A stretch of DNA of 64,000 nucleotides from Promethearchaeota archaeon (GCA_030599585.1 JAUVNS010000005.1:224001-288000), one strand, 5' to 3'. Shown: positions 1 to 63,176, numbered from the stretch's first letter. Translations and numbers: made by a program. Notes: a model not told the origin generated them from the sequence alone.

Positions 1-502
1 ATATCGTCAAGGATTCACCGAAAAATAAAAAGAAGGGAAATAACCCGTTCAAGCCGCAAAAAATGGAACCCACTAAAGCAATCAGAAATGAAAATATGAC
101 CACTCTATATATTCTCTTGTTCTCGTAGTTTATATATGTTTTTGGGGTTAGAAACATTAATCCTTTTAAAATGGGAGAATTAAATTCTTTTTTACTGAAC
201 TCTGGTGTGATGATGTCATCTTTATTATCAATAAGCGAATTATAAGCGTGGAGCCCTAATTCCGACAAATAATACTTTTTGTCGCCTTGTTGTTCAATTA
301 GACTAGACAAAGTATCTAAATGATGGTAAATAGTGCCTGTGCTCACTTTCAACTCATTTTTAAGGTAAGTAAATGAAGAAAATTTATTTTCCCCGATAAT
401 TTTAATTATTTTTCTTCTTAATTCGTGACTTAATGCATAGTAATAATTAGCCTCGGCGTCAGCAGAGTCACTTTTTTTTTCTATGTTTTCTTTTTTTGTA
501 AT
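1..502 (-). CDS. ArsR/HxlR-like winged-helix regulator with downstream hydrophobic segment (3' partial, absent from ORF track)
   Basis: Manual translation gives ITKKENIEKK...YYALSHELRRKIIKIIG...SFTYLKNELKVSTGTIYHHLDTL...YYLSELG (wHTH pattern). No ATG/GTG/TTG precedes the domain; ATT at 502 follows GGAAGGGA. Confidence 0.75.
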   Translation of the reverse strand, partial: MTKKENIEKKSDSADAEANYYYALSHELRRKIIKIIGENKFSSFTYLKNELKVSTGTIYHHLDTLSSLIEQQGDKKYYLSELGLHAYNSLIDNKDDIITPEFSKKEFNSPILKGLMFLTPKTYINYENKRIYRVVIFSFLIALVGSIFCGLNGLFPFFLFFGESLTI

Positions 503-522
503 TTTTAAATCCCTTCCAAATT

Positions 523-930
523 TTATTCTTGTTTGGTTAAGAGTATGTTTAAAATTTCGAAAAATATCAGAATCGAACCAATAACTGAAAAGTAAAACCC
601 GATTTCTGCATAGGGGATATAAAGGAGTTCTCGGGGAATGATCTCGATTATAAATATTAAAAAAAACCCAAGTCCGATGAAGTTAATGATTACAGAATTA
701 ATCTTATAATCCAAATTATATAGAATAACAATAGCCCCAACTAAACATATTATCCCACAAATTAGGGGAAAAAGATATAAAAAGGAATCTTCAATAGCTA
801 CACTCACTGAAATGATATAAATATATAATAAAGATTGGTTAGAGAACCAAGGTAAAAATTGAGACAATATCAACAATACCGAACCAGTTAATCCTAATAA
901 CCGAAAATCTAAATATCTTTTGATATTCAT
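523..930 (-). CDS. small membrane protein (~4 TM), unknown function
   Basis: 135-aa ORF with hydrophobic segments and an LPWF motif; co-oriented with the wHTH gene. Confidence 0.7.
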   Translation of the reverse strand: MNIKRYLDFRLLGLTGSVLLILSQFLPWFSNQSLLYIYIISVSVAIEDSFLYLFPLICGIICLVGAIVILYNLDYKINSVIINFIGLGFFLIFIIEIIPRELLYIPYAEIGFYFSVIGSILIFFEILNILLTKQE

Positions 931-1049
931 TATATCTCATCTTTTTGAATTATTTATTATTTAAATGTTCAAATACTATAAACTAAAATACTAATATTAA
1001 TTTAAGTCTTAAAATACATCTCATTAAAAATAATCATTTATTGATCAAG

Positions 1050-2453
1050 ATGTCATCAGAAAAAAATAAAGAAATTGATGTCGATTCGATTCACATTGTT
1101 GATTATTTGAAAAAAGATATACCCGTCGAGGACCTTAGAGACTTTTCTTCTTCGAGAAGAATTGGAAGCATAGATTTCGTCAAGGGAATAGCAATTATTC
1201 TTATAATTGGAGCGCATTCCGCTAAAGCGTGGCTTGTGCCTCATTGGCAGTTTTTTTATGGGATTGGTTTTGCCTTTCTGGACATTGTTGGACCGTCTTT
1301 ATTCGTTTTCTTGTCAGCTCTAAGCGTCGTTTTTAGTATACGCCGCAAAAAGGGAGAAGTAAAGGAGAAGATTATAAGAAATAGAATTTTTTCTCGGGGT
1401 ATTATGATTATCGTAATAGCGGTTATATTTAATTTAGTTTCTATCGAGTTTACCGTCCCAGGTTATTCTTTTCCCGCCACACTTTGGGGTTGGAACATTC
1501 TGATGTTCATAGGTTTTGCGCAGATATTTTCTTATTATGCATTGAAACTTAGTAAAATTGCTCGGGCTATCATTGGTTTCATTATTATCTTTGCATCTGA
1601 CTCAATTCGGCTGTATCTTTTTCAAGGAAAAGAAGCAGGAGATTTAATAAGTACTGTTCTGCATTACATTATAACTTCTCCCTCTCCTATGACACCGTTA
1701 TTACCATGGATTTCAATCTGCTTTATCTCATCGATTTTTGGAGAATACTTGTATGAAGCCATGGTTGGAGGAACGATAAAAGACTATAAAAAGTTATTTC
1801 GAACATTCTTATATTGGGGAATATTTTTCATCCTCGTAGGTATTTTTCTAGGTAGAAATTCATATTTACCATCTCTGACTGGAGACGAGTTTATTTTAGC
1901 TACGAATACTACAATAGGAAGGCTACCTGCAAATGAATACCCCCACATCCTTCTTTGGTATGACATGATAACCCAAAAATTTCTACCCGATATTACTTAT
2001 CCTGGTATGTGGGAATTTACGATAAGGGGAAGAGCCCCTAACATGATATATAATTTAGGTGCTGCCCTTATTCTCATTGCAGTATGTTTCTACTTCATAG
2101 ATATTAAAAAAAAGATGAATAATTTTATAACAATGATAAATTATTTTGGAAAAGTATCATTAAGCTTGTTTTTGCTACATTTTGTTTTTATAACTCTGTT
2201 TTTGAATACCCTAGATTTCGTCGCTTATGCCTTTTTATATTTTTCATACGTGGGATCTTGGGGGTTCATAATGTATATATGGAACGAGTTCTATGACGGT
2301 GTAGGGTCGCCGGAATGGCTTATGGTTCAAATTGGAAGAATCGGACAAAAAACGGGGAAAACAGTAAAGAAAGAAATTCTCGTCATCGAAGAAGAAATAA
2401 AAGAAACGGTTCATAAAATAAGAAAAGACCATGACGAAGGATCAAAGAAATAA
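1050..2453 (+). CDS. HGSNAT-like (DUF1624) multi-pass membrane acyltransferase
   Basis: RIGSIDFVKGIAIILIIGAH motif, PLLPW, GKVSLSLFLLH, many TM helices; ATG 1050 chosen over TTG 1041. Confidence 0.7.
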   Translation: MSSEKNKEIDVDSIHIVDYLKKDIPVEDLRDFSSSRRIGSIDFVKGIAIILIIGAHSAKAWLVPHWQFFYGIGFAFLDIVGPSLFVFLSALSVVFSIRRKKGEVKEKIIRNRIFSRGIMIIVIAVIFNLVSIEFTVPGYSFPATLWGWNILMFIGFAQIFSYYALKLSKIARAIIGFIIIFASDSIRLYLFQGKEAGDLISTVLHYIITSPSPMTPLLPWISICFISSIFGEYLYEAMVGGTIKDYKKLFRTFLYWGIFFILVGIFLGRNSYLPSLTGDEFILATNTTIGRLPANEYPHILLWYDMITQKFLPDITYPGMWEFTIRGRAPNMIYNLGAALILIAVCFYFIDIKKKMNNFITMINYFGKVSLSLFLLHFVFITLFLNTLDFVAYAFLYFSYVGSWGFIMYIWNEFYDGVGSPEWLMVQIGRIGQKTGKTVKKEILVIEEEIKETVHKIRKDHDEGSKK

Positions 2454-2628
2454 CATTCAATCTAAATTTCGATTTCTAATTAACTTTATTTAGAAATTAC
2501 ATCTTCTACCCATTTTTTTTAACTTATATAATAAAGTTTAAATTTTCATAAATTAAGAATACTTTATAATTTCGTAGTTATTGATTTACGAATAACATTC
2601 AATTTATCAACATAGCGATGAGTAAAAA

Positions 2629-3897
2629 ATGTCAATTGAAAACGAATTTGGAACAGCAACCGAATCCCCTCCGCTCTTTAACTATTTGCAAGAACTAATT
2701 CCTTTAGAAGATATCCGAGATTTTGCTTCTCCAAAGCGTATCGGAAGTATCGATTTTGTAAAAGGTTTTGCAATAGTTTTTATTATATTAGCACATTCAG
2801 CTGCCGTTTGGTTAAACAGTGAAAATTACTATCTTTATGGCGTGCTATTTGCACTGCTTGATTTTCTTGGGCCGTCCTTGTTTGTTTTTCTTTCAGCTTT
2901 AAGCGTGATTTTCAGTATTCGAAACAAACAGAACAAATTGCCCTCTAAAGTGATACGTATGAGGATATTTTCTAGAGGCATTATTATCATCCTTATTGCG
3001 ACAATTTATAATGTTACATCTCTTAGTATAGAAGCTCCTTCTGTTCCTTTTCCTCTAAACCTCTGGGGGTGGAACATCCTAATGTTCATCGGCTTTTCGC
3101 AAATCTTTTCTTATTATGCAGTAAGATTGACAAAGCTTTCTAGAGCTATTATAGGAATTGTAATTGTTTTCTCTTCAAATTTCATAAGAGATCTCCTCTT
3201 CATCCCAGGTATTGAAGATGGTAATTTGATAGTTATTTTCGTTCATTTTCTTGTAGTAGGTCCTCTTCCTATGGTTCCACTCCTACCTGGATTGGCGATC
3301 TGCTTTATTTCTACAATTTTTGGAGAATATCTTTACGAAGCGATGAATAAAGGAACTCACGACGCGTACGTTGGATTGTTTCGTATCTTTATGATATGGA
3401 GTATAATTTTAATTTTAATTGGCATAGGATTTGGATTTCAATTATATACCCGTGACACGATACTAGGGGGCGTTTCTGAATACCCAAATATAGCTCTCCT
3501 AGATGTGGCAAATAGACCAGCTTTTATTAATCTCCCTGGAATGCCCGAGTTTTTAATCAGAGGAAGAGGCCCAAATTTGATATATAATTTAGGTGCTGCT
3601 TTATTAGTTATTTCTATTAGCTTTTACTTCATTGACATTAAGAAAAATTATGGTAATTTTGTTAAAATGCTGGTATACTACGGTAAGGTATCTTTAAGTT
3701 TGTTTTTCGTTCATCAAATATTCCTCGGTTTGTTCAGTAGACAATTTGACCTTATTCTATTTCTTACCACAGATATAACCTATATAGGTATGATGGGCTT
3801 TCTAATGTATATTTGGATGGAGTATGCCAATGGTGTTGGATCCCCGGAATGGTTAATGGCTGCGATGGGTAGATTTGGAAAAAAAAAGCGAAAATAG
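2629..3897 (+). CDS. HGSNAT-like (DUF1624) membrane acyltransferase, tandem paralog
   Basis: RIGSIDFVKGFAIVFIILAH; shares LWGWNILMFIGF and GVGSPEWLM blocks with the upstream gene. Confidence 0.7.
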   Translation: MSIENEFGTATESPPLFNYLQELIPLEDIRDFASPKRIGSIDFVKGFAIVFIILAHSAAVWLNSENYYLYGVLFALLDFLGPSLFVFLSALSVIFSIRNKQNKLPSKVIRMRIFSRGIIIILIATIYNVTSLSIEAPSVPFPLNLWGWNILMFIGFSQIFSYYAVRLTKLSRAIIGIVIVFSSNFIRDLLFIPGIEDGNLIVIFVHFLVVGPLPMVPLLPGLAICFISTIFGEYLYEAMNKGTHDAYVGLFRIFMIWSIILILIGIGFGFQLYTRDTILGGVSEYPNIALLDVANRPAFINLPGMPEFLIRGRGPNLIYNLGAALLVISISFYFIDIKKNYGNFVKMLVYYGKVSLSLFFVHQIFLGLFSRQFDLILFLTTDITYIGMMGFLMYIWMEYANGVGSPEWLMAAMGRFGKKKRK

Positions 3898-4028
3898 AAA
3901 ATCGTTATTGGCGTAAAATTCAACCCAAATAGATTTTATTTTGCTCTTTAAATGTGGTTATAACTATTAAATTTACCTTTAAGATAATTATATATATAAA
4001 TAATTCTATATTGAATTGGTGACCCCTA

Positions 4029-4547: not shown

Positions 4548-4578
4548 TCTAATCTGAAATGTCTTATTGAATTAATAA

Positions 4579-5202: not shown

Positions 5203-5236
5203 TCTCATCATCTCCAATCTTTTTTTATATAAAACT

Positions 5237-7297
5237 TTACTTTCTGAAAGAAATCTTAGTCGAAAATTTTCTAAATGGTTTAGGCAATTTATGTTTAGGA
5301 AATCCTTTCGTGTCTTCATTAAGCATTTCAATAAGTTCGCTCAGTTTAACATTGTTGACATTTTTTGACGTTTCCTTTTTTGGACCTATTGGATAACCTA
5401 TTAGCCTTTTTCTTACTGAAATAGTTTGATTTTCTTGCTCTTTTGCACCGAGTATTATGGTATAGGGAATCCAATCAATTTCGGATTGTCTAATTTTTTT
5501 ACCTAATTTTTCATTTCTATCGTCAAAATCTACTCTGTAGGATTCTTTACTAAGAATTTTGAGTATTTTCTCAGCATAGTCGTGCTGATCATTGCTTATA
5601 GTTAAAATCCTTACTTGGATAGGAGATAACCACGTTCTAAATCCCGGAACGATTTTATCTTTATCTCGAATTGCCGTCTCGATTAATCCCCACAAGATCC
5701 TCTCTAATCCTCCTGTTGGAGAATTATGAAGAATGACCGGATATTTCTTTGTACCATCAGTATCTGTAAAATTAATGTCGTATTTTTGTCTCTTTTTTCC
5801 TTCGTTATCTACCATATATTCAAGCGAGCTTTCTACGTCAATTTGGTTAGTTGAGAGCGTAGCGCTTCTATTCTGAGCTGAGAGGACGGGTCTTTCGAAC
5901 TTTAAAACAAAGTAAAAGTATCGTTCTTCCCATAATTCTAATAAAGCTGGTTGTCCTTCTTTCTTTATTAATTCTTTAATCCATTCCTTATTTTCTTTAT
6001 AAAAATCTTGAGTTGCTCTGAAAATTATGTAAGATTTTATTCCCAGGTCGTCTAAAAGGTTTTTTATTAAGAAATATTGACTTTTAAATTCTTCTACTGA
6101 AGACTTCACATCTTTGCATAATGTGTGCATATCAGGCATTACAAAACTTCTTAACCTTCTCAAACCTGTAAGTTCTCCTTTCATTTCTCGTCTAAAGGAA
6201 TATTGTTCCCATTCATATACTCGTAATGGAAAATAATGAGGTTTTAAATTCATAGAACTTAATAAATCAAAAAGTAAGAAATCAGAAGCATATCTTAATA
6301 TATACCTATCACTTCCCGATTCAACCCAATAACTCCTTGCTGGAAAACGTGCAGTTTGTGCAGTCAATTTTTTGTTTTTAGTAGTATACATAAGGGGAGT
6401 GTCGATAAGAATAGCACCGTAATCAATTATCCTATCTTCCACAAAACTCTTAATCAAGTTTTTCATGATCACTCCCTTACTATACCAACGGAGATTCCCC
6501 GCATCTGTGTTTGGATCGAAATCTACAAGCTCAAATTCTTTCATTACTTTGATATGAGCTGGTTCGATGCCTTCATCTGTTCTTTTTGTTCCTAATTCAG
6601 ATTCTAAGAAAAGCTGGAAATCTTCGTCTTTAATCTCTTTTAAGGGTAAAACATTCTTATCATCATCAAATTTTAAATCTAATTCAGTTCCTTGGGGTGT
6701 AATTACTTTAAATACTGCCGTTTCTATGTGTTCTTCAGGTTGAATGTATAACTTTACATCTCGGTACATCTCAGCCACTTCATGACCTATACAGTTAATT
6801 TTAAAAGACTTATACCATCCAAAGGGAGAATAACTTGCTTCGACACCCTTTTCTTCTAAAAATTTAGCGATTTTAGGACAGACATCCATAGCGTTTGCTT
6901 CATTACTAAGAAATTTGCTTAAATGCGCCCAGGGGTATACTAATACTTGATCAACCCTGTAATTATCCCTTTCCTTTATTAGCTCAAGGATTTTTCTTGG
7001 TTTTCCTTTGATTTGGCCACTTTCAATCTTTTTATTATATTCTCTTATCTCTTCGTTTTTCCGTCTAATTATTTCAGGAAAATTCGTTATTTGAATTATT
7101 GCATCTTCTATAACTTGAGCACCTTGTTTTGAAATTAAATCTGTATCGTAAGTATCTTGATCTTCTACAGATACATAAGCTACCAAAATCAGGCCCTCCA
7201 TTTTAATTATATCTTCGGGAAAGTCTTGTGGATTGCTTGTGGCTACTTTATTTTTTATAACTTCTACCCCATCAGAGTGAATTAGTAAAATTTTCAT
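5237..7297 (-). CDS. thrS: threonyl-tRNA synthetase, archaeal type with N-terminal editing domain
   Basis: MKILLIHSD, VYPWAHLS, PFGWYKSFKINCIGH editing domain; FRREMKGELTGLRRLRSFVMPDMH; GGLER; anticodon-binding domain. Confidence 0.95.
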   Translation of the reverse strand: MKILLIHSDGVEVIKNKVATSNPQDFPEDIIKMEGLILVAYVSVEDQDTYDTDLISKQGAQVIEDAIIQITNFPEIIRRKNEEIREYNKKIESGQIKGKPRKILELIKERDNYRVDQVLVYPWAHLSKFLSNEANAMDVCPKIAKFLEEKGVEASYSPFGWYKSFKINCIGHEVAEMYRDVKLYIQPEEHIETAVFKVITPQGTELDLKFDDDKNVLPLKEIKDEDFQLFLESELGTKRTDEGIEPAHIKVMKEFELVDFDPNTDAGNLRWYSKGVIMKNLIKSFVEDRIIDYGAILIDTPLMYTTKNKKLTAQTARFPARSYWVESGSDRYILRYASDFLLFDLLSSMNLKPHYFPLRVYEWEQYSFRREMKGELTGLRRLRSFVMPDMHTLCKDVKSSVEEFKSQYFLIKNLLDDLGIKSYIIFRATQDFYKENKEWIKELIKKEGQPALLELWEERYFYFVLKFERPVLSAQNRSATLSTNQIDVESSLEYMVDNEGKKRQKYDINFTDTDGTKKYPVILHNSPTGGLERILWGLIETAIRDKDKIVPGFRTWLSPIQVRILTISNDQHDYAEKILKILSKESYRVDFDDRNEKLGKKIRQSEIDWIPYTIILGAKEQENQTISVRKRLIGYPIGPKKETSKNVNNVKLSELIEMLNEDTKGFPKHKLPKPFRKFSTKISFRK

Positions 7298-7393
7298 GAT
7301 TATATCAAAAATCCTAAATATTTTTCTTCCTTTTGATAATTAATATATTTAAAATTGAAATTAATTATTACTAAAATATTTAATCATAAAATC

Positions 7394-8014: not shown

Positions 8015-8105
8015 AATTCTGCACTTCCATAGTAAAAGTACAATTTTTCAGATATTTGGTAAATATTTTTTGGTATATTATAAAATGTAAATGAGCTGAA
8101 AAAAA

Positions 8106-8543
8106 ATCGCAAAGAAAGTCTTAGTTGCCGGTACATTCGATATAATTCACCCTGGACACTTATATCTAATCAATGAAGCTGCAAAAATGGGTGATGTGTA
8201 CGTAATTGTTGCTACTGATATGAATAGAAAAATTTATTCTGGAGAAACACCTATAATTCCAGAAGACCAAAGGTTAGAAGTTATAAAAAGCATAAAAAAC
8301 GTAAAAGAAGCAAGATTGGGACGATCTGACAACGATACTCTCAAAACTGTTGAAGAAATTAACCCAGATATTATCCTTTTAGGTCCAGACCAAAAATATA
8401 ATCTCGAAACGTTGAAAGGAGAATTAGGAAAAAAAGGTTTAAGTAAAATTATGGTAAAAAGGTTGGATACTTACTATGAGAAATACTCGCTTCACTCTTC
8501 TAGCTTAATTAAAAAAAAAATAATAAAACAGTATAAGAATTAA
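8106..8543 (+). CDS. ribL: archaeal FAD synthetase (cytidylyltransferase family); true start uncertain
   Basis: In-frame upstream of the track ATG: IAKKVLVAGTFDIIHPGHLYLINEA (HxGH motif); LGPDQ and SSS motifs; adjacent to ribK. Confidence 0.8.
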   Translation: MAKKVLVAGTFDIIHPGHLYLINEAAKMGDVYVIVATDMNRKIYSGETPIIPEDQRLEVIKSIKNVKEARLGRSDNDTLKTVEEINPDIILLGPDQKYNLETLKGELGKKGLSKIMVKRLDTYYEKYSLHSSSLIKKKIIKQYKN

Positions 8544-8559
8544 AATTTTAAGTAAGGCT

Positions 8560-9273: not shown

Positions 9274-9317
9274 AAACAGGTTTAGCTTGGCAAAAGAATG
9301 ATGAGGGCTAAATAACT

Positions 9318-12190: not shown

Positions 12191-12454
12191 GAATTAGACT
12201 CGTCTTACTTTGTTCAGATATTTATAAAAACTCAAATAAAATCATCAATCTTAGTATCAATAAAATTTAATATCTAAAAAAGAAAAAAAAAAGTAATATC
12301 CTAGTAATATAAAAAAAATATTGAAATCTTTAAACTATAAGGAAATATAATTATTTAGAATTTGAAAATTATTTACGATTCCTCAACTCTCATTAATAAG
12401 ATAAGCGGGAGGAAAAGCATATAATATAAAAACAAGTTATGGAGTTGAGACATA

Positions 12455-13198
12455 CTGAAAGCAATAATACTCTGTGCGGGTCAAGGAACGAGGTTACAAC
12501 CTTATACTAACAAATATCAGAAAACGATGCTGAAACTTCACGGTAAGCCTTTTTTAGAATACCTTTTAGAAGGATTGATATCTGCAGGCTTTAGAGAATT
12601 CATTTTTGTGGTTGGATATAAAAAAGAACAAATAATTAGCTATTTTCAAAATGGAAAGAATTGGAATGTAAATATCAAATATTTAGAGCAAGAGAAGTTA
12701 AATGGAACTGGAGGAGCTTTATTGCTCTGCGAAAGTTCTATTATTAAAGATCACTTTTTTTTAACATGGGGAGATATATTAGTACCTTATAAGATATATA
12801 AAGATGTGGTTGATATCCATCAAAAAGAAAAGTATGACTATATTTTAGTTGCTAATTACACGGAAGATCCTTACTTAGGTGCTGCAATTTATAGCGATGG
12901 CAGTATTTGTACCGATATAATTGAAAAACCACCTCTCGGAACCTCGAAGACTAATTTTAACAATTGTGGCGTGTTCATTTTTTCTAAAAACATATTCAAT
13001 CTTTTGAGAAAACTCTCACCTTCCGAAAGGGGTGAAATAGAAGTTCCTAAAGCTCTTCTAAAAGGGATAAAAGAACATAATTGGAAAGTAAGAGTTGTAG
13101 AAATGGGGAAATATCAATTCAGAATTGACTTAGGAGTTAAGCAAATATATGAACAATTAAGGGACGATTCATCATGGGTTCATTTTTTAAAGATTTAA
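12455..13198 (+). CDS. sugar-phosphate nucleotidyltransferase, probable CTG start
   Basis: (L)KAIILCAGQGTRLQPYT lies upstream of the track ATG; GTGGA, WGD, IEKP, SERGEIE. Confidence 0.88.
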   Translation: MKAIILCAGQGTRLQPYTNKYQKTMLKLHGKPFLEYLLEGLISAGFREFIFVVGYKKEQIISYFQNGKNWNVNIKYLEQEKLNGTGGALLLCESSIIKDHFFLTWGDILVPYKIYKDVVDIHQKEKYDYILVANYTEDPYLGAAIYSDGSICTDIIEKPPLGTSKTNFNNCGVFIFSKNIFNLLRKLSPSERGEIEVPKALLKGIKEHNWKVRVVEMGKYQFRIDLGVKQIYEQLRDDSSWVHFLKI

Positions 13199-17080: not shown

Positions 17081-17216
17081 GTATCTTTAATTAAATCTTT
17101 ATTTTTATTTTTATAATACACTTCTTAATTTCATGATAAATCATCTGAGGCTTTTTTTTTAAATACTCATCTCGATTCCTTTTCTTTAAATCGAAAATTT
17201 TCCGGGATGAATTCTC

Positions 17217-17546
17217 ATTTCTAAGGGTTTCCTTAACAACAAAGATGTTGAAAATACATTCGAAACAATTAACCAAAATGAGACTAATCTAAATTTAAGT
17301 AAGGAAGATATTAATGCCGGAAAAACCTCCTATAGCATAAATAATCCTAATAATTTACTCATTCAAGAATGTGATGTTGCTAAAAAAGAATATTTAACCA
17401 TGGTAGAAGATATCCATGTTATCTTAAGCAATCATGAAAATTTAACTAACTATGAAAAGTTAAATTATTGTAATAGCGAAAGACATTACATGAAACAATA
17501 TCTAAAACATACTATGATAAAAATAAATCAAATTTTACCAGATTAA
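17217..17546 (+). CDS. candidate hidden hypothetical protein (~109 aa, ATT start)
   Basis: Stop-free frame 17211-17546; GGGATGA 6 nt before ATT 17217; first in-frame ATG is only at 17400. Confidence 0.45.
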   Translation: MSKGFLNNKDVENTFETINQNETNLNLSKEDINAGKTSYSINNPNNLLIQECDVAKKEYLTMVEDIHVILSNHENLTNYEKLNYCNSERHYMKQYLKHTMIKINQILPD

Positions 17547-26988: not shown

Positions 26989-27091
26989 TAGCCCAGAGGG
27001 GAAATGTTCCTTCTAAAAGAAGTTTTAAGAAGATTGAACCCCTGATCACTTGCTTCGCAGGCAAGCGTCTTATCCACTCGACTACTGGGCT
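26989..27091 (-). tRNA. tRNA-Arg(GCG) with 30-nt intron at 58/59 (T-loop), intron 27004-27033
   Basis: Acceptor AGCCCAG/CTGGGCT; anticodon arm CTTGC-CTGCGAA-GCAAG; A20; T-stem AGGGG/CCCCT; BHB with central helix GTTC/GAAC and 3-nt bulges AAT and ATT. Confidence 0.92.
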
Positions 27092-27210: not shown

Positions 27211-27507
27211 TTACCTAGGATAGTCAGGTCTACTAGAAACTAATGTTGTAGTTTCCTCGATCCAGCTAGATAAATCATCATCAACTCGAATATAAGCGAC
27301 GATTTTATCCAGTTCTTGAAGTTTAGTAAAATTACATTCTGCTACTAAATCCCATCCGCCATAAACAGGAGTTGTGTAAGTCACCGCCCAATCTTCATCT
27401 GGATTATTCGATCTTAAATTTGTTAACCTTTTTACAACTTCCCATTCAGTTCCAATTACTTTTAGTCTAATGAGTATGTATCCGCGATAGTAGATCTTAA
27501 ACACCAC
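27211..27507 (-). CDS. stand-alone Lrp/AsnC ligand-binding (RAM)-like domain protein
   Basis: VYGGWDLVAE...IEETTTLV; GTG start. Confidence 0.7.
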   Translation of the reverse strand: MVFKIYYRGYILIRLKVIGTEWEVVKRLTNLRSNNPDEDWAVTYTTPVYGGWDLVAECNFTKLQELDKIVAYIRVDDDLSSWIEETTTLVSSRPDYPR

Positions 27508-32100: not shown

Positions 32101-32204
32101 TGGGAGAGGGGGGATTCGAACCCCCGGCCACTCGGCCCCCAGCCGATTAGAAATAGTTTGAGAAATCCAAACTAAGGTATCATACCAAGCTAGACCACCC
32201 TCCC
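32101..32204 (-). tRNA. tRNA-Pro(GGG) with 30-nt intron at about 27/28, intron 32147-32176
   Basis: Acceptor GGGAGGG/CTCTCCC; spliced anticodon arm CTCGG-CTGGGGG-CCGAG; GGGGG-TTCGAAT-CCCCC; intron hairpin TAGTTTG/CAAACTA. Confidence 0.88.
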
Positions 32205-49482: not shown

Positions 49483-49693
49483 CTAAACAAACTCCAAACT
49501 TCTTTTAATAATATAACAATGATAAAAATTTTCGAATTTATTTTTTTAGTATTATTTTGTTTGATGCATTTGAAATTATCAATAAGATACAAAAAAGTTA
49601 ATTCTAGTATTGAAATCTTTAAAGTTTTAGCAATATTTAGTAAAATATTCAATTTATTTTCTTGAATAAGTATACAAGGAGATTGAGGATATA

Positions 49694-50749
49694 ATTACTA
49701 TTGATAAGAAATGTATTGGATGGTTATGCAGTTATACACCTATAGAACTCATCTACGCTGCAGGTCTTCTTCCATATCGTATAATTGGCCATTCAAATCC
49801 ACCACAAAACGCAGATTCTTATATACATCCCAATTTCTGTCAATTTATAAAATCTACAATTGATGTAGCAATAGAAGGTGGATATGATTTCCTCGAGGGG
49901 GTTATTTTCGTAAACTCTTGCGATGCGATGAGGAGACTGCACGATGTTTGGAAAAGGTACGTTCCAACGAAGTTTATTCATATATTAGATATTCCGATGG
50001 GCAACTTATCTTTGGGTTCAAAGTATCTCGAAAATGAGTTTCTGAAGCTTAAGAACGCGCTCGAAAAATATGCATCTACCCAAATTAAAGAGGAAGATAT
50101 TAAAAACGCTATTGACATTTATAATAATTCACGGTTATTGTATAACCAACTGAACTCGTTAAGAATGGAAGATCCTCCATTAATAACAGCAGGTCGCTTA
50201 ATGGAACTCACGACAGATTTCTTCAAAATCGAACCAGATGTTTGGAATGAGAAAACTAAAAAGCTCATAGAAGAAATAAAATCAGAAACTACGAAAGCAG
50301 AACAAAAAAAAAGCCCTCGAATCCTTTTATCTGGAAGTCCACTCCATGAAATAGAATTCCTTAAATTTATAGAAGGAATTGGATTGAATCTTGTTTACGA
50401 AGATCTTTGTACTGGGAGCAAATTTTTTGATTTGAATATTAAAGAATCTAATAACTTAATATCTTCATTAAGCGAAGCTTACTTAACAAGAACTCCATGC
50501 GCTCGAATGATGCAAATAGAAGAAAGAGCTAAACAGATCATAAATAATTCAAAAAAATTCAAGGCCGATGGAGTAATTCACCATTCCTTAAAATTTTGCG
50601 ATACATATTTGTACGATGTTCCTGCTTTGAAAAAAATCTTGCGAGAAAATGAAATTCCTGTTTTATTCATTGAAAGCGATGGCGGGTTAGGAGACGTAAA
50701 TCAACTTAGAACGAGAATTGAAGCCTTCTCAGAAATGATTAAAAATTAA
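49694..50749 (+). CDS. 2-hydroxyacyl-CoA dehydratase (HgdB/FldC-type) subunit, non-ATG start
   Basis: Upstream in-frame IGWLCSYTPIELIYAAG...PNFC...NSCDAMRR; DLCTG, TPCAR, LKFCD, QLRTRIEAF; exact start (49691/49694/49700) uncertain. Confidence 0.85.
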   Translation: MTIDKKCIGWLCSYTPIELIYAAGLLPYRIIGHSNPPQNADSYIHPNFCQFIKSTIDVAIEGGYDFLEGVIFVNSCDAMRRLHDVWKRYVPTKFIHILDIPMGNLSLGSKYLENEFLKLKNALEKYASTQIKEEDIKNAIDIYNNSRLLYNQLNSLRMEDPPLITAGRLMELTTDFFKIEPDVWNEKTKKLIEEIKSETTKAEQKKSPRILLSGSPLHEIEFLKFIEGIGLNLVYEDLCTGSKFFDLNIKESNNLISSLSEAYLTRTPCARMMQIEERAKQIINNSKKFKADGVIHHSLKFCDTYLYDVPALKKILRENEIPVLFIESDGGLGDVNQLRTRIEAFSEMIKN

Positions 50750-55993: not shown

Positions 55994-56029
55994 CTTCTTA
56001 TATCCTCTTTTATAATCTAATTAATAACT

Positions 56030-57736
56030 TCATCTATTTTCAACAAATTCCATATAATCACCGATGGAGGCGGTAGACCTTTTAAAGCTAAAAAGGCTTG
56101 AACCCAATAGTTCTGTGATTTGGATTATTACATCACTAATACTATTTTTTATGAAGATTTTAAATTTCTCGTTCTTTCTTTCTTCAATTATTACCTCTAT
56201 TTCCTTCATTTCTTTAAGTTTTTGAATTGAGGAATCGTCTGGATTGTTCAATTCTATGCTCAAAATTTCACCAAATTGAGGTAATTCTTCAATGTAGTCT
56301 TTAATAGAGCCTATTTTTGATGTATTTTTTGTAATCGTTAGAATTCGGTCACAATTTGATATAATATCTTCCGGACCATGAAAAATTAGGATGACATGAA
56401 AATTTTCTTTGATTTTATCCATGTATGAATTAAACTTTTCATACTCGAGCTTGCCTAAAATCCCAAATGGTATAGAAAACATTATAATTGTTGGTGATTG
56501 GATTAATGCCCTTGTAATAGAAAAAAGAAGAAATTCCAAAGGAGTCAACTTTGAGAATCTCTTATTTTTCTTATTCAGTAGTCCAGTTGATTCTAAAACT
56601 TTTTTTAGATACGCCTTCTTGCGATTGATTCTATATGACCTGGTTTTTAAGAAATCTTCCATTATTTCATCTAAACTTTGAGCCAAACCAGCTTTCTTTA
56701 GCATTAATTTAAATATTTCCTTCTTTTTCTTATAAATTGCATGTAGATTAATTTGATATTGAATAGCTTTCTTGATCTTCATACTTGTGATTGTTGAATC
56801 GTATGCTTGAGGTAGAATGAAAATTCTTTCTTTCTCAGATGGACTTAATAATATAGTAGGTTTTCCAAAAATTTCGATTGAACCAGAATAGTCATGTTGT
56901 GAACCTGCCATGGCGTCAAATAAAATCATCAAATCCCGCCTGAGATCAATTTTGGCTAAACTTTTTTCATCAAATATTATTCCTATCGATTTTCCTCGGT
57001 GAATTTTGAATGATAATTTATCAATCATATCACCTAATGTAACACGATTTACAACCAAATATTGAGAATTTTCTTTTAACACTTTTATTTTTACTCGTGC
57101 GGAGACAATACCACATATTCTATCTACAAGTTCATAAATGTGAGGGGGGTTTTCTGTGTTCCAATTTTTAATCATCTCGTCCTCTATAAATTCTCTCTCA
57201 GTGATAATTTTAGATAAAGATCTTGAAAAAGAAAAGGTTGGTAAAAACGGATATTTTTCTAAATTAATTTTGAGATTTAAAGTAAAATCAGGATAAGAGA
57301 TTCTTATCTCTCGGTCGTATGGGTTAGTTTTAATTTGATAATTCTCAAATTTTTCGTCAAGTAGTATAATTTCAGTATTTAAAATTCTTAGATGACTTTG
57401 GAATTCCGAACTGATAAGCCTTCTCATGTGGTGGATAATTTTTATGGGATTTATCAATCCGTCTTCATCAAAATCTGGTTCAAATAAAATCTCATTAAAA
57501 TCAATTTCATTTTCAAGAGGGGTGTATATCTTCAATAACGGAACTCCTTTTTCAATAACATCACTATTAGGAAAGAATAAAACTTCGATAAACGATTTTT
57601 TATAGATTAAATTAATAATAGAAGCAATCCCAAACGTATTTTCTCTGTAAGTCATCCAAAAACGCTTAGAGAAACGAACAGCATCTAAAATTTTTAATCT
57701 TATTCGTTCCAATTCTATATCTCTAGAGCTCTTCAA
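56030..57736 (-). CDS. UBC/RWD-like domain fused to a degenerate ABC ATPase
   Basis: INLEKYPFLP...IKNWNTENPPHIYELV; Walker A lost (GIIFDEKS), signature LTPLE, Walker B lacks DE; TTG 57736 with GAGGT SD. Confidence 0.65.
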   Translation of the reverse strand: MKSSRDIELERIRLKILDAVRFSKRFWMTYRENTFGIASIINLIYKKSFIEVLFFPNSDVIEKGVPLLKIYTPLENEIDFNEILFEPDFDEDGLINPIKIIHHMRRLISSEFQSHLRILNTEIILLDEKFENYQIKTNPYDREIRISYPDFTLNLKINLEKYPFLPTFSFSRSLSKIITEREFIEDEMIKNWNTENPPHIYELVDRICGIVSARVKIKVLKENSQYLVVNRVTLGDMIDKLSFKIHRGKSIGIIFDEKSLAKIDLRRDLMILFDAMAGSQHDYSGSIEIFGKPTILLSPSEKERIFILPQAYDSTITSMKIKKAIQYQINLHAIYKKKKEIFKLMLKKAGLAQSLDEIMEDFLKTRSYRINRKKAYLKKVLESTGLLNKKNKRFSKLTPLEFLLFSITRALIQSPTIIMFSIPFGILGKLEYEKFNSYMDKIKENFHVILIFHGPEDIISNCDRILTITKNTSKIGSIKDYIEELPQFGEILSIELNNPDDSSIQKLKEMKEIEVIIEERKNEKFKIFIKNSISDVIIQITELLGSSLFSFKRSTASIGDYMEFVENR

Positions 57737-60700
57737 TTTCGGGTACCTCAATTAATTTATATCTAAAAAATTGCTCCATTTTTGAATCAATTTGTTTTAA
57801 ATCTTGGATTGTATCCTTTCCTACTTCGTTTTCAATTTTAATAACAAGAGACTCGACATCAAGATTAGTGAATATTGAATAATCCGTCCCTGCCTTATTT
57901 TCTAAGACATTCTCTATCCCATCTATAGATTCTAACCTTTGGACCATATTTTTTTGAATGGTGTTAAAAGATAATTCAATTGAGCGCCCTTTACCTGGTA
58001 ACTGAGCAAGTAATTCTTTAGGCTTCCCGAAATCTATAATCCCTCTATTCCTACCAAAAATTGCAACCCTATTACAAAATCGAGATTCTTCTGGATAATG
58101 AGTTATTACAATTAATGTTGTGCCAAATTGTTCATTAATTTTAGTTAAGGCTAACCATAAATTTTCACGAATAATCGGATCTAATCCCGAAGTAGGCTCG
58201 TCTAAAATAAGAAAGATAGGTGAATGGATTAAACCGATTGCGATACTAACTCTACGTTTTTGGCCTCCTGAAAGATTTTTAACTAATTCATTCATCTTAT
58301 CTTCAATCTCTAAGCTTCGTAAGAGTCTTTTAGATCTGCTTATTATTTCTTGCTCAGTTAGACCGTACTGGCTCCCAAATGAGAGTAAATTGTCAATAAC
58401 AGTGAAATCGTGGTAAATTTTGCTTAGATCTTGAGGAACATACCCATACATCGGCCGTATCTTTTTAGAAGTTCTTTTATTTATATTTAACCCAAAAATT
58501 TGGCAGAAACCGGTTATTTTCCTCATCCCTAATAAACCCTTAATATATGTGGATTTACCTGCTCCACTTTCGCCTAAAATCCCTAGAATTTGACCGTGTT
58601 CTACCTTCATTGTAACAGAATCAACAATTAACTTACCACCCGCGTATACGCTGAAATTTTCACAATGAATTGCTGGAAACCTTTGAAGATAGGAGGGTGT
58701 GATTTTCCCTCCCAGACCTACTTTTTCCTTAATACGCTTTATTAAAGAAATTTTTTTGCGAATTATAAGAAATACATAAGCGCTTAAAATACCAGCTTCA
58801 GTTAATAAGATATATATTAATAGCACATTCCACGGTTTCGAATCGAAACTTTGATCATATTTTAATTCATCAATTATTATGATTCCATAAGGAGTATTTC
58901 TTAAATCAGCTCCAAAATTTGGATTATCTCCAACCCCTCCCGTACGAACGCTTATACAATCAGAAAACCAGAATAGGGCATCTTTAATGTTTTCTGGCTG
59001 AAAATCATAATCATATAACGATTTGGAAGCCATGTATGTCGTAAGAAACGAGGATGGTAAGTCTAATAAATCACCCATCATGGGTAGCAAAGAGAAACTA
59101 CCATCCGAACTTTGCGAAGTAATCAAGAAATTAATCGCTGACATTTTCGAAATTGGTCCTTGAACGAAACCTTCTTTAAAAATTTGGAGTCCATAATATG
59201 TCGAAATGATATCACTATGAAATCCCATAACAATGGAAAATCCTCCATCTGCATTTTGGCAGGACCTTACCCAATGTGAAAAATTATTGTATTGAATCGT
59301 ATGAAGTCCGTTAATCAATTCTAGAGAAACCAAAGCCCAATATGTACTCTCTACAGTAGATGCATTAACATCTATTAAATCCGTAAAAAGTACGGAATAA
59401 GCTCCAAAAAGAGAAAACAAATAATCAATATCATCACCTACCCTAAATCCACCATCAGGATTTTGCAAACTAGATAGATAATTCTTAGTAGCGTTTAATA
59501 CATTAATAGGAGTTGTTTGAAACCATGGACGATTTCGAGGAATGATCATCTCTAAAAGCTTAATACCGCAATAAGTAGAAAATAATGTAGCATTTTGTCC
59601 TGGTTGAGACCCAAACCCTCCATCATATGAATTATAACATGCTCCCACAAAATTTAATATATAATTTTTTATGGCTTGAAATTGAGATGTTTGTATTGTA
59701 TCTAAATATCCCATTTCATAATAAGTTAATACACCAAAATAGTTAGATTCTATTGTAATTTGCCCGAACAGAGCATTCTTAGCTTGAAAAAAGTGCAGCC
59801 AATTATAATATTTAACAGATACCTGATGAATTACATTAGAAAGCTCAATTGTGAGATTAAGCCTCGGTGTTAATATTCCAATTGATTTCATTGCTGCCCA
59901 CCCAGAGTTAAAATCCGATATGGTAGTGTTAGGGCGAACACCAAATCCACCATTATTATTTGATGAATTTAAAACAAAATTTAATGTTTCATCCTCATTA
60001 TTTAATATATTAAACCCTAACAGATTCTCTACTATCTCTAATGTTGAAATTGAGTAATAAGTTGTTTGGACATCAGACATTCCCGTTTCAGGATTTGTAT
60101 ACCCTCCATCGAATGAGTTATACAATGAACCAAAATACGCCCAAATTGATGTTAAATCAAAAATACTATAGGTCATATTCATCCTTAAATAAGCCCTTAC
60201 ACCGTAGAATGTTGCTTCAGGAGTGCTGATTAACGAGTTGTTAGTTAACCTATAACTACCTCCAAGCCATGTAGAATTTATAAATTCTCCAACTTTTTTG
60301 TTTGTAATACTAGACATTTCAGATATGCTATAAGATAATTTAATCGCGCTAAAAGTAGAAATTATGTCTGAATCGTTTAGAAATTGATTAAATTTAAAAC
60401 CCCATCCGCCCCCATTAAGAGAGCTTAACAGATATTTCGCTATATTATCTGTTTCTCCAAGTTGAACTTTTCTCTCAAGGTATGAAATATTAGCTATTTT
60501 TAATGTTTCGATAGCCATATAAGTAGAGAACAAATTCCCCAGACCTGCGATATCTGAATAAGAACCATCGTAATTTTGTTTTTCAAATATATAATTAAAG
60601 AAGATATCTTTTAGAAAAAATTGTACATTGGTATTATTGTTAGGATCAATTAAATCTGGAGCATATATGTTTGTAAATGTAAAATTTGTGGAATCTATTG

Positions 60701-60926
60701 CTCGATAATTTGAATCGATTTCAGGTTCCACAAACAAGCCTATTTGATTATGATGAGTGGTTGCAAATAATGTTGCAAGGTTTTTAGCTTTGCTTACATC
60801 TGTTTCACTTATAAAATAGGTCCATCTAATATTGATTAAAACCAATGATATTATTGGTGTTCCTGCTAAAATTATGAGTATTATAAGCCTTTTGAGTCTT
60901 TTTTTGTTTTTACGATTAAGATTTAT
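57723..60926 (-). CDS. TM - prenyltransferase/squalene-cyclase-repeat ectodomain - TM - ABC ATPase fusion, ATA start
   Basis: Repeats QNYDGSY, QNPDGGF, QNADGGF, QSSDGSF with STY; GESGAGKST, LSGGQ, LILDEP, ITH; in-frame extension INLNRKNKKRLKRLIILIILAG after GGAGGTGA. Confidence 0.85.
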   Translation of the reverse strand: MNLNRKNKKRLKRLIILIILAGTPIISLVLINIRWTYFISETDVSKAKNLATLFATTHHNQIGLFVEPEIDSNYRAIDSTNFTFTNIYAPDLIDPNNNTNVQFFLKDIFFNYIFEKQNYDGSYSDIAGLGNLFSTYMAIETLKIANISYLERKVQLGETDNIAKYLLSSLNGGGWGFKFNQFLNDSDIISTFSAIKLSYSISEMSSITNKKVGEFINSTWLGGSYRLTNNSLISTPEATFYGVRAYLRMNMTYSIFDLTSIWAYFGSLYNSFDGGYTNPETGMSDVQTTYYSISTLEIVENLLGFNILNNEDETLNFVLNSSNNNGGFGVRPNTTISDFNSGWAAMKSIGILTPRLNLTIELSNVIHQVSVKYYNWLHFFQAKNALFGQITIESNYFGVLTYYEMGYLDTIQTSQFQAIKNYILNFVGACYNSYDGGFGSQPGQNATLFSTYCGIKLLEMIIPRNRPWFQTTPINVLNATKNYLSSLQNPDGGFRVGDDIDYLFSLFGAYSVLFTDLIDVNASTVESTYWALVSLELINGLHTIQYNNFSHWVRSCQNADGGFSIVMGFHSDIISTYYGLQIFKEGFVQGPISKMSAINFLITSQSSDGSFSLLPMMGDLLDLPSSFLTTYMASKSLYDYDFQPENIKDALFWFSDCISVRTGGVGDNPNFGADLRNTPYGIIIIDELKYDQSFDSKPWNVLLIYILLTEAGILSAYVFLIIRKKISLIKRIKEKVGLGGKITPSYLQRFPAIHCENFSVYAGGKLIVDSVTMKVEHGQILGILGESGAGKSTYIKGLLGMRKITGFCQIFGLNINKRTSKKIRPMYGYVPQDLSKIYHDFTVIDNLLSFGSQYGLTEQEIISRSKRLLRSLEIEDKMNELVKNLSGGQKRRVSIAIGLIHSPIFLILDEPTSGLDPIIRENLWLALTKINEQFGTTLIVITHYPEESRFCNRVAIFGRNRGIIDFGKPKELLAQLPGKGRSIELSFNTIQKNMVQRLESIDGIENVLENKAGTDYSIFTNLDVESLVIKIENEVGKDTIQDLKQIDSKMEQFFRYKLIEVPEIEEL

Positions 60927-61960
60927 TATGGATTGTCACCTCCATTCAATATTTCAGAATTATTTAGACGGTTTTCAATTTCTTCCTCTTCTTGAATTCT
61001 GATTTGAAAGTATCTTCTAAAATTAGCGACGTCCCTGCTCATGGAATAAACTTTTAAATTATTTTCAAACAAGAATTTCATCAATTTAGGTAAGCTATCT
61101 TCAAAATCTTCCATTAAAACTTCGATAGTCTCGTTTCCAACCCTTAATACTTTTTCTGTGAATGGATACTTTTGTATGGTATTAATTATCTCTTGGTTTA
61201 AATTTTCAATTGAAATTCTTGCTACCAAACCATTACTAGGTAAAGAGTTTATAAGATTTTGTGGAGAATCGAATTCAAGCAATTTCCCTTCCCTTAAAAT
61301 AGCACATTTATCACATATTAACGCTGCTTCTAAATCGTGAGTAATTATAAACATGGTAGTATTTAGCTGCTGGTTTAACTTCTTAAGATAGCTAAGAATA
61401 TCATAACGCTTAGATGCATCGACTCCAGTAGTAGGTTCGTCAAGAAATAAGACTTTTGGGTTATGAATTAACCCAATAGCCATTGATAAGCGCTTTTTTT
61501 CCCCGCCGCTCATCTTCTTAACTCTTTTTTTCCAGGTGTCTTGGGGGATATCTAATATGTTAAATAATTTTTCAGCAGTTGATTTTGCTTCTTTTTTATC
61601 CATTCCATAAGTAGAGGTAAAAATCTCAACATTAACCATGGGATTTAGTTCAAAATATAGATTTAGCAGTTCTAATTGAGGTACATATCCGATATTGCTT
61701 AAAATTTTTGAGTGATTTCCTTTTTTACTCGGATTTAAACCTGTAACTAATACATTGCCACTCCAGTTTTTTTTATCAATCTGGCATGTTAAAACCCTTA
61801 TTATGGTTGTTTTTCCAGCTCCGGATATTCCGAACATCCCAATAATCTCCCCTTCTTCTACATTAAATGAAACATCTTGAACTATTTGCTTATCTCCGAA
61901 AATGACATTTAAATTTTCAACAAATACCATTGTGTTGTTCGAATTCTCAGTAGTCTCCAT
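60926..61960 (-). CDS. ABC transporter ATP-binding protein (ABC-2/DrrA-like)
   Basis: GISGAGKTT, MSGGE, LFLDEPT, ITHD. Confidence 0.95.
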   Translation of the reverse strand: METTENSNNTMVFVENLNVIFGDKQIVQDVSFNVEEGEIIGMFGISGAGKTTIIRVLTCQIDKKNWSGNVLVTGLNPSKKGNHSKILSNIGYVPQLELLNLYFELNPMVNVEIFTSTYGMDKKEAKSTAEKLFNILDIPQDTWKKRVKKMSGGEKKRLSMAIGLIHNPKVLFLDEPTTGVDASKRYDILSYLKKLNQQLNTTMFIITHDLEAALICDKCAILREGKLLEFDSPQNLINSLPSNGLVARISIENLNQEIINTIQKYPFTEKVLRVGNETIEVLMEDFEDSLPKLMKFLFENNLKVYSMSRDVANFRRYFQIRIQEEEEIENRLNNSEILNGGDNP

Positions 61961-61961
61961 G

Positions 61962-63173
61962 TCACACCTCGTATTTTCTTCTCTGAAACAAAATAAATGA
62001 CAACACTACGAGAACAAGACTTACTCCTAAAAGAGAAAAGAAATCAAAACCAAATACAGATTTCCCTTTAGTAATTATTCCTGTAATTAAAGGGGATCCA
62101 TGAGATAATGGGAGCACATAGGCTATAGCTTGTAGGTAAATGGGCATAGCTTCAATGGGAATAAAAATTCCGCTTAAAAGAATCAAAACGAGAAAGGTTG
62201 CAAAAAATAATTGATTTGCTTGGGTTTTAGTTTTACTTAAAGTACTAATAAATATACCAATTGTAAGACCGGCAAAACCTAAAATGAATAAAGCTAGAAA
62301 TAAATCAAATACAGTTCCTAGTAAATATAAACCAAAACCTAAAGCGGCCATCACAAGAGAAATATTTTGAACGATTAAAATGCTAAGGTAGGTTACATAT
62401 TTTGCTAATAGTATTTCAATTCTTTTAACCGGTGTGAGTAACAATCTCGCAACGGGCTTTTCTTGAACGATGATTAAGATTGTTGAGACCATACCAACGC
62501 CAATTATCATAAAAGACAACACTAATACCATGGTATTATTATACCCTGAGCTGTAGTTTTCTGGAATTGTAAATTCCTCAAAGCCATTGAGTTCAAATTG
62601 AGGAGTTAAATTATTCTGGGACACAAAAATTTTAATCGAATCGTAAACAGCATTTAAGTTAACCTGAATTTTTTGGATATCTGATGAATCTGTTATACAG
62701 TCGATTAAACCTGGATACCCCCAACTTATTAATTCCGAAAAATCGACAGGAATTGCTATAATAATCTGAATCCTTTTAGAAATCATGTAATTTCTAGCGG
62801 TCTCCATTGCATATATCTCCTCAGTTGCGTTGAAAAATTGGACGAGGTTCAATAAATTTGATGAATTAACAGCCTCGACATATTTAAGATTATAATCATC
62901 CAGTTCTGATTCTGTGAAATTATTTTCTTCAATAAAAGTGTTTGAATCATAGGAAACGACAACGCAATTAATAGGGTCTGCGGGTCCTCCCGAACTACTA
63001 GAGGTTACACCTATTAAAACTACAACGAGAGGAGGTACAATTAACGCTATGAAAATATTAAACTTATCTGTCCATAATAGACGAAATTCTTTTTTAATTT
63101 GGTTAAATAACCTTAGAACACTGTTTTTTTGAAATAATTTCTTACCATTTTTTTTGTTTAAACTTCTAATGAT
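61962..63173 (-). CDS. ABC-2 type permease, start extended upstream
   Basis: In-frame upstream IKKEFRLLWTDKFNIFIALIVPP (TM1); RLLLTPV, LSGIFIP, LPLSH; start at ATA/ATC/ATT 63176-63170 after GGAGGT. Confidence 0.85.
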   Translation of the reverse strand: MIRSLNKKNGKKLFQKNSVLRLFNQIKKEFRLLWTDKFNIFIALIVPPLVVVLIGVTSSSSGGPADPINCVVVSYDSNTFIEENNFTESELDDYNLKYVEAVNSSNLLNLVQFFNATEEIYAMETARNYMISKRIQIIIAIPVDFSELISWGYPGLIDCITDSSDIQKIQVNLNAVYDSIKIFVSQNNLTPQFELNGFEEFTIPENYSSGYNNTMVLVLSFMIIGVGMVSTILIIVQEKPVARLLLTPVKRIEILLAKYVTYLSILIVQNISLVMAALGFGLYLLGTVFDLFLALFILGFAGLTIGIFISTLSKTKTQANQLFFATFLVLILLSGIFIPIEAMPIYLQAIAYVLPLSHGSPLITGIITKGKSVFGFDFFSLLGVSLVLVVLSFILFQRRKYEV

Positions 63174-63176
63174 TAT

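Follow-up and report, generated by a model that had tools for sequence, protein, structure and literature searches.

Probable translation initiation at near-cognate codons in six genes of a Loki-type Asgard archaeon

Six genes in a 64,000-nucleotide stretch of DNA from an uncultured Loki-type Asgard archaeon (Promethearchaeota archaeon, GCA_030599585.1, JAUVNS010000005.1:224001-288000; this whole stretch, G000:C9:224001-288000 in our numbering, is called here the window) have conserved N-terminal sequences that lie 5′ of the first canonical start codon, i.e. of the first ATG, GTG or TTG. Judging from sequence comparison, these genes are very probably real, with translation starting at AUA, AUU or AUC (collectively AUH, or ATH in DNA) or, for a nucleotidyltransferase, at CUG. 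Sequencing error, pseudogenes and downstream canonical starts are excluded because the corresponding columns of orthologues keep or alternate near-cognate codons. The genome to which the window belongs is a metagenome-assembled genome (MAG) of 4.85 Mb in 52 contigs, with 32–33% G+C.

The mechanism proposed relies on standard components. Pairing of a Shine–Dalgarno (SD) sequence with the 3′ end of the 16S rRNA, which reads GGAUCACCUCCU in this genome, would hold the mRNA with the codon situated 8–9 nt past the GG of the SD core in the P site of the ribosome, and the ordinary initiator Met-tRNA (anticodon CAU) may then accept this codon with one mismatch, so that the proteins would probably begin with Met. 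The lineage would tolerate such starts in a few per cent of all genes. The initiation factor aIF1, which normally rejects such codons, would itself be made from a near-cognate start, a situation reminiscent of bacterial infC and suggestive, by analogy, of a lowered or self-regulated stringency of start-codon selection.

Conserved N-termini upstream of canonical codons in the window

All stop-to-stop open reading frames (ORFs) of the window were listed, noting how far the first canonical codon lies from the preceding stop, and every site quoted in a preliminary description of the window was read directly on the sequence. That description had named six genes with conserved N-termini 5′ of the first canonical codon; all its coordinates hold, and the six belong to a set of about 55 non-shadow ORFs. 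They are given below with the proposed start codon and, where single, its SD spacing. Spacing is counted starting at the final G of the AGGAGG core; for an imperfect SD, the aligned position serves instead. The last line gives a candidate seventh case absent from the preliminary description.

2–502, minus strand: winged helix-turn-helix (wHTH, ArsR-like) regulator, ATT 502–500, spacing 9; the gene continues past the window's left edge
8106–8543, plus strand: RibL-type FAD synthetase (cytidylyltransferase-like), ATC 8106, spacing 9
12455–13198, plus strand: sugar-nucleotidyltransferase, CTG 12455, spacing 9
49691–50749, plus strand: 2-hydroxyacyl-CoA dehydratase D-component-like protein (HGD-D), ATA 49691 or ATT 49694, preceded by stop TAA 49667
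57723–60929, minus strand: fusion of an N-terminal transmembrane (TM) segment, a prenyltransferase-like toroid and an ABC ATPase, ATA 60929–60927, spacing 9
61962–63173, minus strand: ABC-2 type permease, ATC 63173–63171, spacing 8
17211–17546, plus strand: candidate seventh case, a 111-codon ORF, ATT 17211 or ATT 17217

In all six genes an in-frame stop stands a few codons 5′ of the conserved N-terminal sequence, with no ATG, GTG or TTG between; the distance is 1–8 codons, except in the wHTH gene, where it is 60 codons and the stop of the preceding gene at 523 sets the limit for the start. The non-canonical codon follows an SD-like motif, as the preliminary description had it for most cases: the spacing is 8–9 nt for five of the six proposed codons and 8 or 11 nt for the dehydratase, the mode for canonical starts being 9. 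Protein profiles point to the same positions. The Pfam profiles of RibL, the nucleotidyltransferase and the dehydratase begin 1–12 residues past the proposed codon, and use of the canonical starts in these three genes would remove 22–78 profile positions and with them the HxGH and GxGTRL motifs.

In the genes of RibL and the nucleotidyltransferase, the in-frame stop is part of the SD-like motif and the SD has one mismatch. For RibL, the order is TGA 8097, AAA, AAA, ATC 8106, then AKKVLVAGTFDIIHPGH; TGA 8097–8099 lies within GAGCTGA 8093–8099, the first canonical codon, ATG 8187, comes 3′ of the HxGH motif, and the Pfam CTP_transf_like profile (positions 2–132 of 133) begins at residue 7. For the nucleotidyltransferase, the order is TGA 12446, GAC, ATA, CTG 12455, then KAIILCAGQGTRL; TGA 12446–12448 lies within GGAGTTGA 12441–12448, the first canonical codon is ATG 12527, and position 1 of Pfam NTP_transferase corresponds to residue 2 after CTG. 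In the wHTH gene, ATT 502 is at spacing 9 from AGG 514–512 of GGAAGGGA (SD-like motif AAGGGA), the in-frame stop is at 682, and the first canonical codon, TTG 352, falls within the helix-turn-helix; residues 20–87 match Pfam DUF7347, weakly.

In the other three genes, ATH codons are adjacent, which makes the exact start codon ambiguous. The dehydratase has its SD at AGGAG 49677–49681, with ATA 49691 at spacing 8 and ATT 49694 at spacing 11, and either may be the start. No canonical start occurs before ATG 49928, and the HGD-D profile (1–342) begins at residue 12 counted from ATT 49694; the roughly 78 extra residues announced in the preliminary description correspond to 78 HGD-D residues that a canonical start would remove. 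For the fusion protein and the permease, that description had left neighbouring ATH codons side by side, and the choice can now be narrowed. The fusion gene reads TGA 60938, CAA, TCC, ATA 60929, ATA 60926 behind the SD GGAGGTGA 60943–60936; ATA 60929, which overlaps the TAA of the upstream gene, is most likely the start rather than ATA 60926, and the first canonical codon, TTG 60845, would cut the TM helix. The permease gene reads GGAGGT 63186–63181 (the SD), TAG 63179, ATA 63176, ATC 63173, ATT 63170, where the in-frame TAG 63179–63177 doubles as the stop of an upstream permease gene. Its start is most likely ATC 63173; the first canonical codon, TTG 62852, is 108 codons downstream, and Pfam ABC2_membrane_3 begins at residue 40. 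An ABC ATPase gene (60926–62005, minus strand) has ATG 61960 in its window copy, six nt past GAGG; several relatives have there a stop followed by ATT or ATA, and since a second conserved ATG is found 10 codons downstream in all members of the family, the true start is uncertain.

The candidate seventh case (17211–17546) has no canonical start for 63 codons, and its extension is coding-like (log-likelihood ratio 3.5, Markov model described below). The alignment with an orthologue from another genome (G011; 44% identity) extends back to the codon directly following the stop and contains synonymous differences; a Pfam search of this ORF gave no family match.

Other window genes with long 5′ extensions (g02, g06, g09, g22, g24, g28, g39, g44, g51 and g54) were considered and rejected, having conserved canonical starts and upstream conserved blocks that look promoter-like. 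Conserved AT-rich blocks at 987–1050 and 7297–7339, for example AATACTAATATTAATTTAAGTCTTAAAATA and AAAGGAAGAAAAATATTTAGG, lie 5′ of the canonical ATG 1050 and ATG 7297. They resemble promoter/TATA elements situated about 25 nt from these ATGs, an arrangement suggestive of leaderless mRNAs. TTG 1041, which appears in the ORF-finder listing, is not conserved.

Start columns in orthologues and the genome-wide signal

Start regions were lined up across loci from species-level MAGs of the same genus (~30 species). As the preliminary description had anticipated, canonical codons alternate with ATH or CTG at the same position, namely in RibL, the nucleotidyltransferase and the permease. In the RibL column (30 loci), 19 species have ATC or ATA, 9 have ATG and 1 has TTG, the last locus having ATG one codon upstream; in nearly all ATC/ATA species, TGA stands two codons 5′. 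RibL ATH is confined to the family of the window genome, and 12 genomes of four other families have ATG. The ATH orthologues keep GAGxTGA, and their SD matches at 5.85 of 8 positions versus 4.23 of 8 in ATG/TTG orthologues, a comparison among related species that are not independent trials; the pattern would fit a weak start codon being offset by a strong SD.

KAIILCAG of the nucleotidyltransferase (30 loci) is preceded by CTG in 13 cases, TTG in 14, ATG in 2 and CTA in 1. CTG is unlikely to be a plain choice for Leu here, because it makes up only 0.39% of codons in the window genome. Gene trees imply at least five switches between canonical and near-cognate codons for RibL and likewise for the nucleotidyltransferase, and synonymous changes among orthologues occur 3′ of the proposed starts. 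The public contig DATKTW010000171.1 (L181), titled ‘Candidatus Nanopelagicaceae bacterium’, encodes a nucleotidyltransferase 89% identical to that of the window in a Lokiarchaeial-MAG context and is probably mis-binned or mislabelled.

Permease orthologues share the conserved motif (T/C/G)TGGAGGT, and the codon 8–9 nt past GGAGG is ATC, ATT or ATA in ~22 species and ATG in 4; in sister sequences the same codon is ATT in some and ATG in others, and ATA also alternates with ATG. In fusion protein orthologues, the codon at spacing 9 is ATA, ATC, ATT or GTG, and for most species the first canonical codon is 18–70 codons in. In the wHTH start region, ‘GGA AGG GAx xTA AAA ATT’ is kept in ~29 of 30 species; most of these orthologues have a stop 6 codons upstream and the first canonical codon 14–115 codons downstream. 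For the dehydratase, four other species (91–73% identity) also lack a canonical start 5′ of the GW motif, and the column at 49694 reads ATT/ATT/ATT/ATA/ATA in the five species; in one orthologue TGA is followed directly by ATC ATT ATA. More distant dehydratase orthologues (63% identity) carry ATG or GTG.

At the scale of the genome, 672 confident starts comprise ATG (82%), TTG (12%) and GTG (6%), with a modal SD spacing of 9. The preliminary description had singled out TTG and GTG starts in the window as frequent: they are present, and nothing unusual is seen in those checked (two relatives have GTG or TTG at the position of GTG 22764; TTG 57736 is 9 nt past GAGGT), but their frequency is ordinary and not special. 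Another GTG, at 27507, starts the window copy of a small conserved protein (27211–27507, minus strand); in its orthologues in two other genomes (G011 and G014) TTG/GTG is out of frame by one base and the in-frame candidate is ATT directly after a stop, and one relative has no canonical codon before the position of residue 84 (of 111).

ORFs with 100 or more codons (n = 3913) show a geometric decay, then a heavy tail, in the distance separating the stop from the first canonical codon. Codon-usage log-odds on the 5′ extensions proved too weak, two verified window cases being scored as non-coding, and a 3-periodic Markov model scoring the 20 codons before the first canonical codon was used instead. 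By this model, ~32–35% of 335 non-overlapping extensions of at least 20 codons are coding-like, which corresponds to ~110–118 genes. As 3.9% of in-frame codons are ATG, GTG or TTG, just 45% of non-canonical genes would reach this 20-codon length. Together with the bacterial control described below, these values suggest that, as a rough figure, ~4–6% of the genes of the genome start non-canonically.

The link between these extensions and SD pairing was examined with an SD-anchored, frame-aware test, used instead of SD-hexamer counts before long ORFs, which did not discriminate, most SD-like hexamers being intragenic. ‘Orphan’ SDs were defined as exact matches that lie 8 or more codons 5′ of the first canonical codon and have no canonical start in their vicinity (n = 217). 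The in-frame codon at spacing 8–10 of these SDs is ATH in 74 cases (34%; ATT 39, ATA 23, ATC 12). At spacings 2–4, 11–13, 14–16 and 17–19, ATH is found in 20–24 of 217 (~10%), and at 5–7 in 38, the enrichment at spacing 8–10 thus being 3–4-fold; ACG (7) and CTG (3) are likewise raised there. Moreover, an exact SD of at least 5 nt combined with a near-cognate codon accompanies 40 of 90 coding-like extensions (~44%) versus 14 of 176 non-coding-like ones; among confident canonical starts, 19% have such an SD. The SD-driven selection of starts put forward in the preliminary description is supported by these results, by the spacing in the window genes and by the stronger SDs of ATH-bearing RibL orthologues, and its view of a lineage trait by the restriction of RibL ATH to one family and by the near-cognate aIF1 starts in several families of the class (see below).

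A bacterial (Acholeplasmataceae) chromosome was taken as a control (400 kb, 33% G+C, SD at 55% of starts) and gave ATH at spacing 8–10 in 1 of 11 cases, an absence of comparable enrichment. A genome of another family of the same order (G026) was unfit as a negative control, showing the same tail and the same ATH enrichment. In another Lokiarchaeial family (400 kb), ATH is found at spacing 8–10 in 5 of 13 cases.

Competing explanations and evidence against near-cognate starts

Among the alternatives, translational coupling survives best, although it is unlikely and concerns only the fusion protein and the permease, whose near-cognate codons would be used mainly by terminating ribosomes that re-initiate. 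Both starts indeed overlap or abut the stop of the upstream gene (ATAA 60929–60926 in the fusion gene; TAG, then ATA ATC, 63179–63171 in the permease gene), but both genes keep a strong conserved SD at spacing 8–9, and coupling is impossible for the remaining four window cases, which come after intergenic regions. Coupling for these two genes is a refinement of near-cognate initiation and not a competitor to it. A different idea for the permease locus, readthrough of TAG or pyrrolysine recoding joining the two permease ORFs, was rejected: conserved TAG readthrough is ruled out because the stop varies among TAG, TAA and TGA in orthologues, and some ORF pairs are in different frames.

Two further explanations are both very improbable. 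In the first, an out-of-frame canonical start just upstream would be followed by programmed frameshifting or transcriptional slippage. Candidate codons exist (ATG 12439 and TTG 12445 for the nucleotidyltransferase, ATG 8091 for RibL and the GTG in GTGA for aIF1), such out-of-frame codons overlap in-frame stops, and some RibL orthologues have an ATG followed by an A8 run, with one A7 relative having that ATG in frame. However, these upstream codons are not conserved: nucleotidyltransferase orthologues with AAAGGAGTTGA have no ATG, RibL orthologues reading TGA CAA AAA ATA or TGA ATT AAT ATA lack both an ATG and an A-run, and the aIF1 genes of two families (f5 and f7) lack the GTG. No conserved slippery site with a stimulator is visible, and what is conserved instead is the near-cognate codon and the SD spacing; frameshifting was accordingly rejected as a general account. 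In the second explanation, the downstream ATG, TTG or GTG codons would be the true starts of shorter proteins, and the upstream conservation would reflect non-coding regulatory sequence. Public gene calls do use these codons, and conserved non-coding, promoter-like blocks exist 5′ of other window genes (g02, g06 and g28). RibL would nevertheless lose its HxGH motif, the nucleotidyltransferase its GxGTRL loop, HGD-D 78 residues, the wHTH protein half of its helix-turn-helix, the fusion protein a TM helix and the permease its first 100 residues; in addition, the upstream parts align as protein with canonical-start orthologues and paralogues, and the position of the downstream canonical codons shows no conservation.

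Least credible of all is the destruction of ordinary ATG starts by sequencing or assembly errors or by pseudogene decay in the window MAG, since despite its 52 contigs, an estimated contamination of 8.9% and an A8 run directly before the RibL ATC, the same state recurs in independent assemblies of up to ~29 other species (60–95% identity) with intact ORFs and conservative or synonymous changes, the ORFs are full-length Pfam matches and the apparently essential aIF1 has the same trait.

Several observations weigh against initiation at near-cognate codons as proposed here, or at least blur it. Adjacent ATH codons leave the exact codon ambiguous in the dehydratase, the permease and the fusion protein. 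Some SDs are imperfect, for example GAGCTGA for RibL, and that of aIF1 is weak and distant. A TATA-like element ~25 nt 5′ of the RibL ATC makes a leaderless or very-short-leader mRNA possible. Start columns are not entirely regular either, with CTA in one nucleotidyltransferase orthologue and ACA in two dehydratase orthologues where the window has ATA. The SD-dependent route is a minority pathway in this genome, a clear SD (exact, at least 5 nt) being found at only ~19% of the 672 confident canonical starts (versus a 5% background at internal ATGs), in line with reviews that describe SD motifs as uncommon in Lokiarchaea. Finally, the genome-wide numbers come from our own crude gene caller, and the same method still finds coding-like extensions for ~1% of genes in the bacterial control.

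Initiator tRNA, aIF1 and known systems

The preliminary description recommended two components for inspection, the initiator tRNA and aIF1. A single initiator-type tRNA was found (contig C3, minus strand), with anticodon CAU, A1:U72 and three G:C pairs in the anticodon stem. It came from a pattern search, the ARAGORN and Rfam tRNA searches having given an incomplete set without tRNA-Met. Within this incomplete tRNA survey, no initiator-type tRNA with an anticodon matching AUH or CUG was found in the genome, and because the sole initiator tRNA found is canonical, no special decoding tRNA is indicated. Its gene has a 48-nt intron after position 37 of the anticodon loop (the canonical site), an encoded CCA end and a location ~50 kb from the end of the contig. 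In the window itself, Rfam detects two tRNA genes on the minus strand, at 32101–32204 (104 nt, intron-bearing) and 27020–27091, and ARAGORN with default settings none. Run on the whole genome with introns allowed, ARAGORN predicts a tRNA-Pyl (CUA) and a tRNA-Sec (UCA); the same run gave implausible anticodons, and these predictions may be false.

The gene for aIF1 has itself a near-cognate start. Its ORF (SUI1; G000:C3:26096–26311) reads TGA AAA AAG AGT ATT AAA GAC, with no canonical codon 5′ of the domain, and this ATT is kept in 26 of 30 loci of the genus. ATT or ATC, without an upstream canonical start, is found in most genera of the window genome's family, and ATA at SD spacing 7–8, likewise without an upstream canonical start, in genomes of three other families. 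Near-cognate ATA, ATT or ATC codons occur for aIF1 in families f2 (genus g5), f5 and f7, and other genomes of the class have GTG, TTG or ATG. In Saccharolobus solfataricus, aIF1 discriminates AUU from AUG in vitro, and without aIF1 the complex accepts AUU; in bacteria, infC uses an AUU start for autocontrol (PMC4705826). From these precedents a parallel between the aIF1 start and infC may be drawn, which suggests a lowered or self-regulated stringency in this lineage. It is possible, although we hold it only tentatively, that initiation in Lokiarchaeia proceeds at a lowered, self-tuned stringency, in which aIF1 made from AUU or AUA feeds back on its own synthesis and the few per cent of the proteome made from AUH, CUG or ACG tracks aIF1 activity. 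If so, self-tuned aIF1 could be a forerunner of the autoregulation of eukaryotic eIF1 and of regulated non-AUG initiation.

Consequences for annotation are already apparent. Public gene calls contain the exact truncated RibL (118 aa) for the window contig and for all 10 cluster members, as well as a truncated nucleotidyltransferase of 223 aa. In contrast, NCBI records of some related MAGs give nucleotidyltransferases of 247 aa (MKAIILCAG) or 248 aa (MLKAIILCAG), starting at CTG or at the codon just before. The systematic truncation foreseen in the preliminary description is therefore real, but it is not universal. For this large group of Asgard MAGs, Prodigal-type gene calls would cut or miss several per cent of proteins, including catalytic N-terminal motifs, and the truncated forms already present in public protein collections affect comparative and structural studies of Asgard proteomes. 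There is also an evolutionary side to the question. Start-codon stringency is thought to have risen toward eukaryotes; an Asgard lineage with wide use of AUH and CUG starts, if confirmed, would bear on the evolution of start-site fidelity and its feedback, the more so as the eIF1 homologue would have a near-cognate start. Cultured Lokiarchaeia now exist. A literature search found no paper on frequent near-cognate starts in Asgard archaea.

Near-cognate initiators as such are already known, as exemplified by infC and the alternative starts of NCBI table 11. The most familiar case is that of ordinary GUG and UUG starts, which are also one-mismatch codons and are recognized by all gene finders; the TTG and GTG starts of the window are of this kind, and the nucleotidyltransferase column alternates between TTG and CTG. 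Closer to the present cases are the AUU start of bacterial infC, which encodes IF3, and the rare AUU, AUA, AUC and CUG initiators of table 11, where a near-cognate codon likewise follows a ribosome-binding site and is used with a normal initiator tRNA. Archaeal aIF1 is unrelated in fold to bacterial IF3. The likeness is that the gene of a fidelity factor is itself near-cognate, infC in bacteria (PMC4705826) and aIF1 here. The systems differ in extent, with a handful of genes in well-studied bacteria versus an estimated ~4–6% here, and autoregulation in the window lineage is suggested only by analogy.

The 30S system of S. solfataricus provides the nearest archaeal comparison, with the same set of factors (aIF1, aIF1A, aIF2 and Met-tRNAi) and SD-led mRNAs (PMC4705826). 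There, AUU is rejected when aIF1 is present, whereas many genes of the window lineage seem to use AUU-type starts in vivo. Eukaryotes, finally, also initiate at near-cognate codons (CUG, ACG, GUG), and their eIF1 is autoregulated through the poor context of its own start. They share with the window lineage homologous factors (eIF1/aIF1 and eIF2/aIF2), one-mismatch codons and a fidelity factor with a weak start of its own, but they select starts by scanning and Kozak context, whereas in the window lineage the codon would be placed by an SD at 8–9 nt, and AUU, AUA and AUC dominate over CUG.

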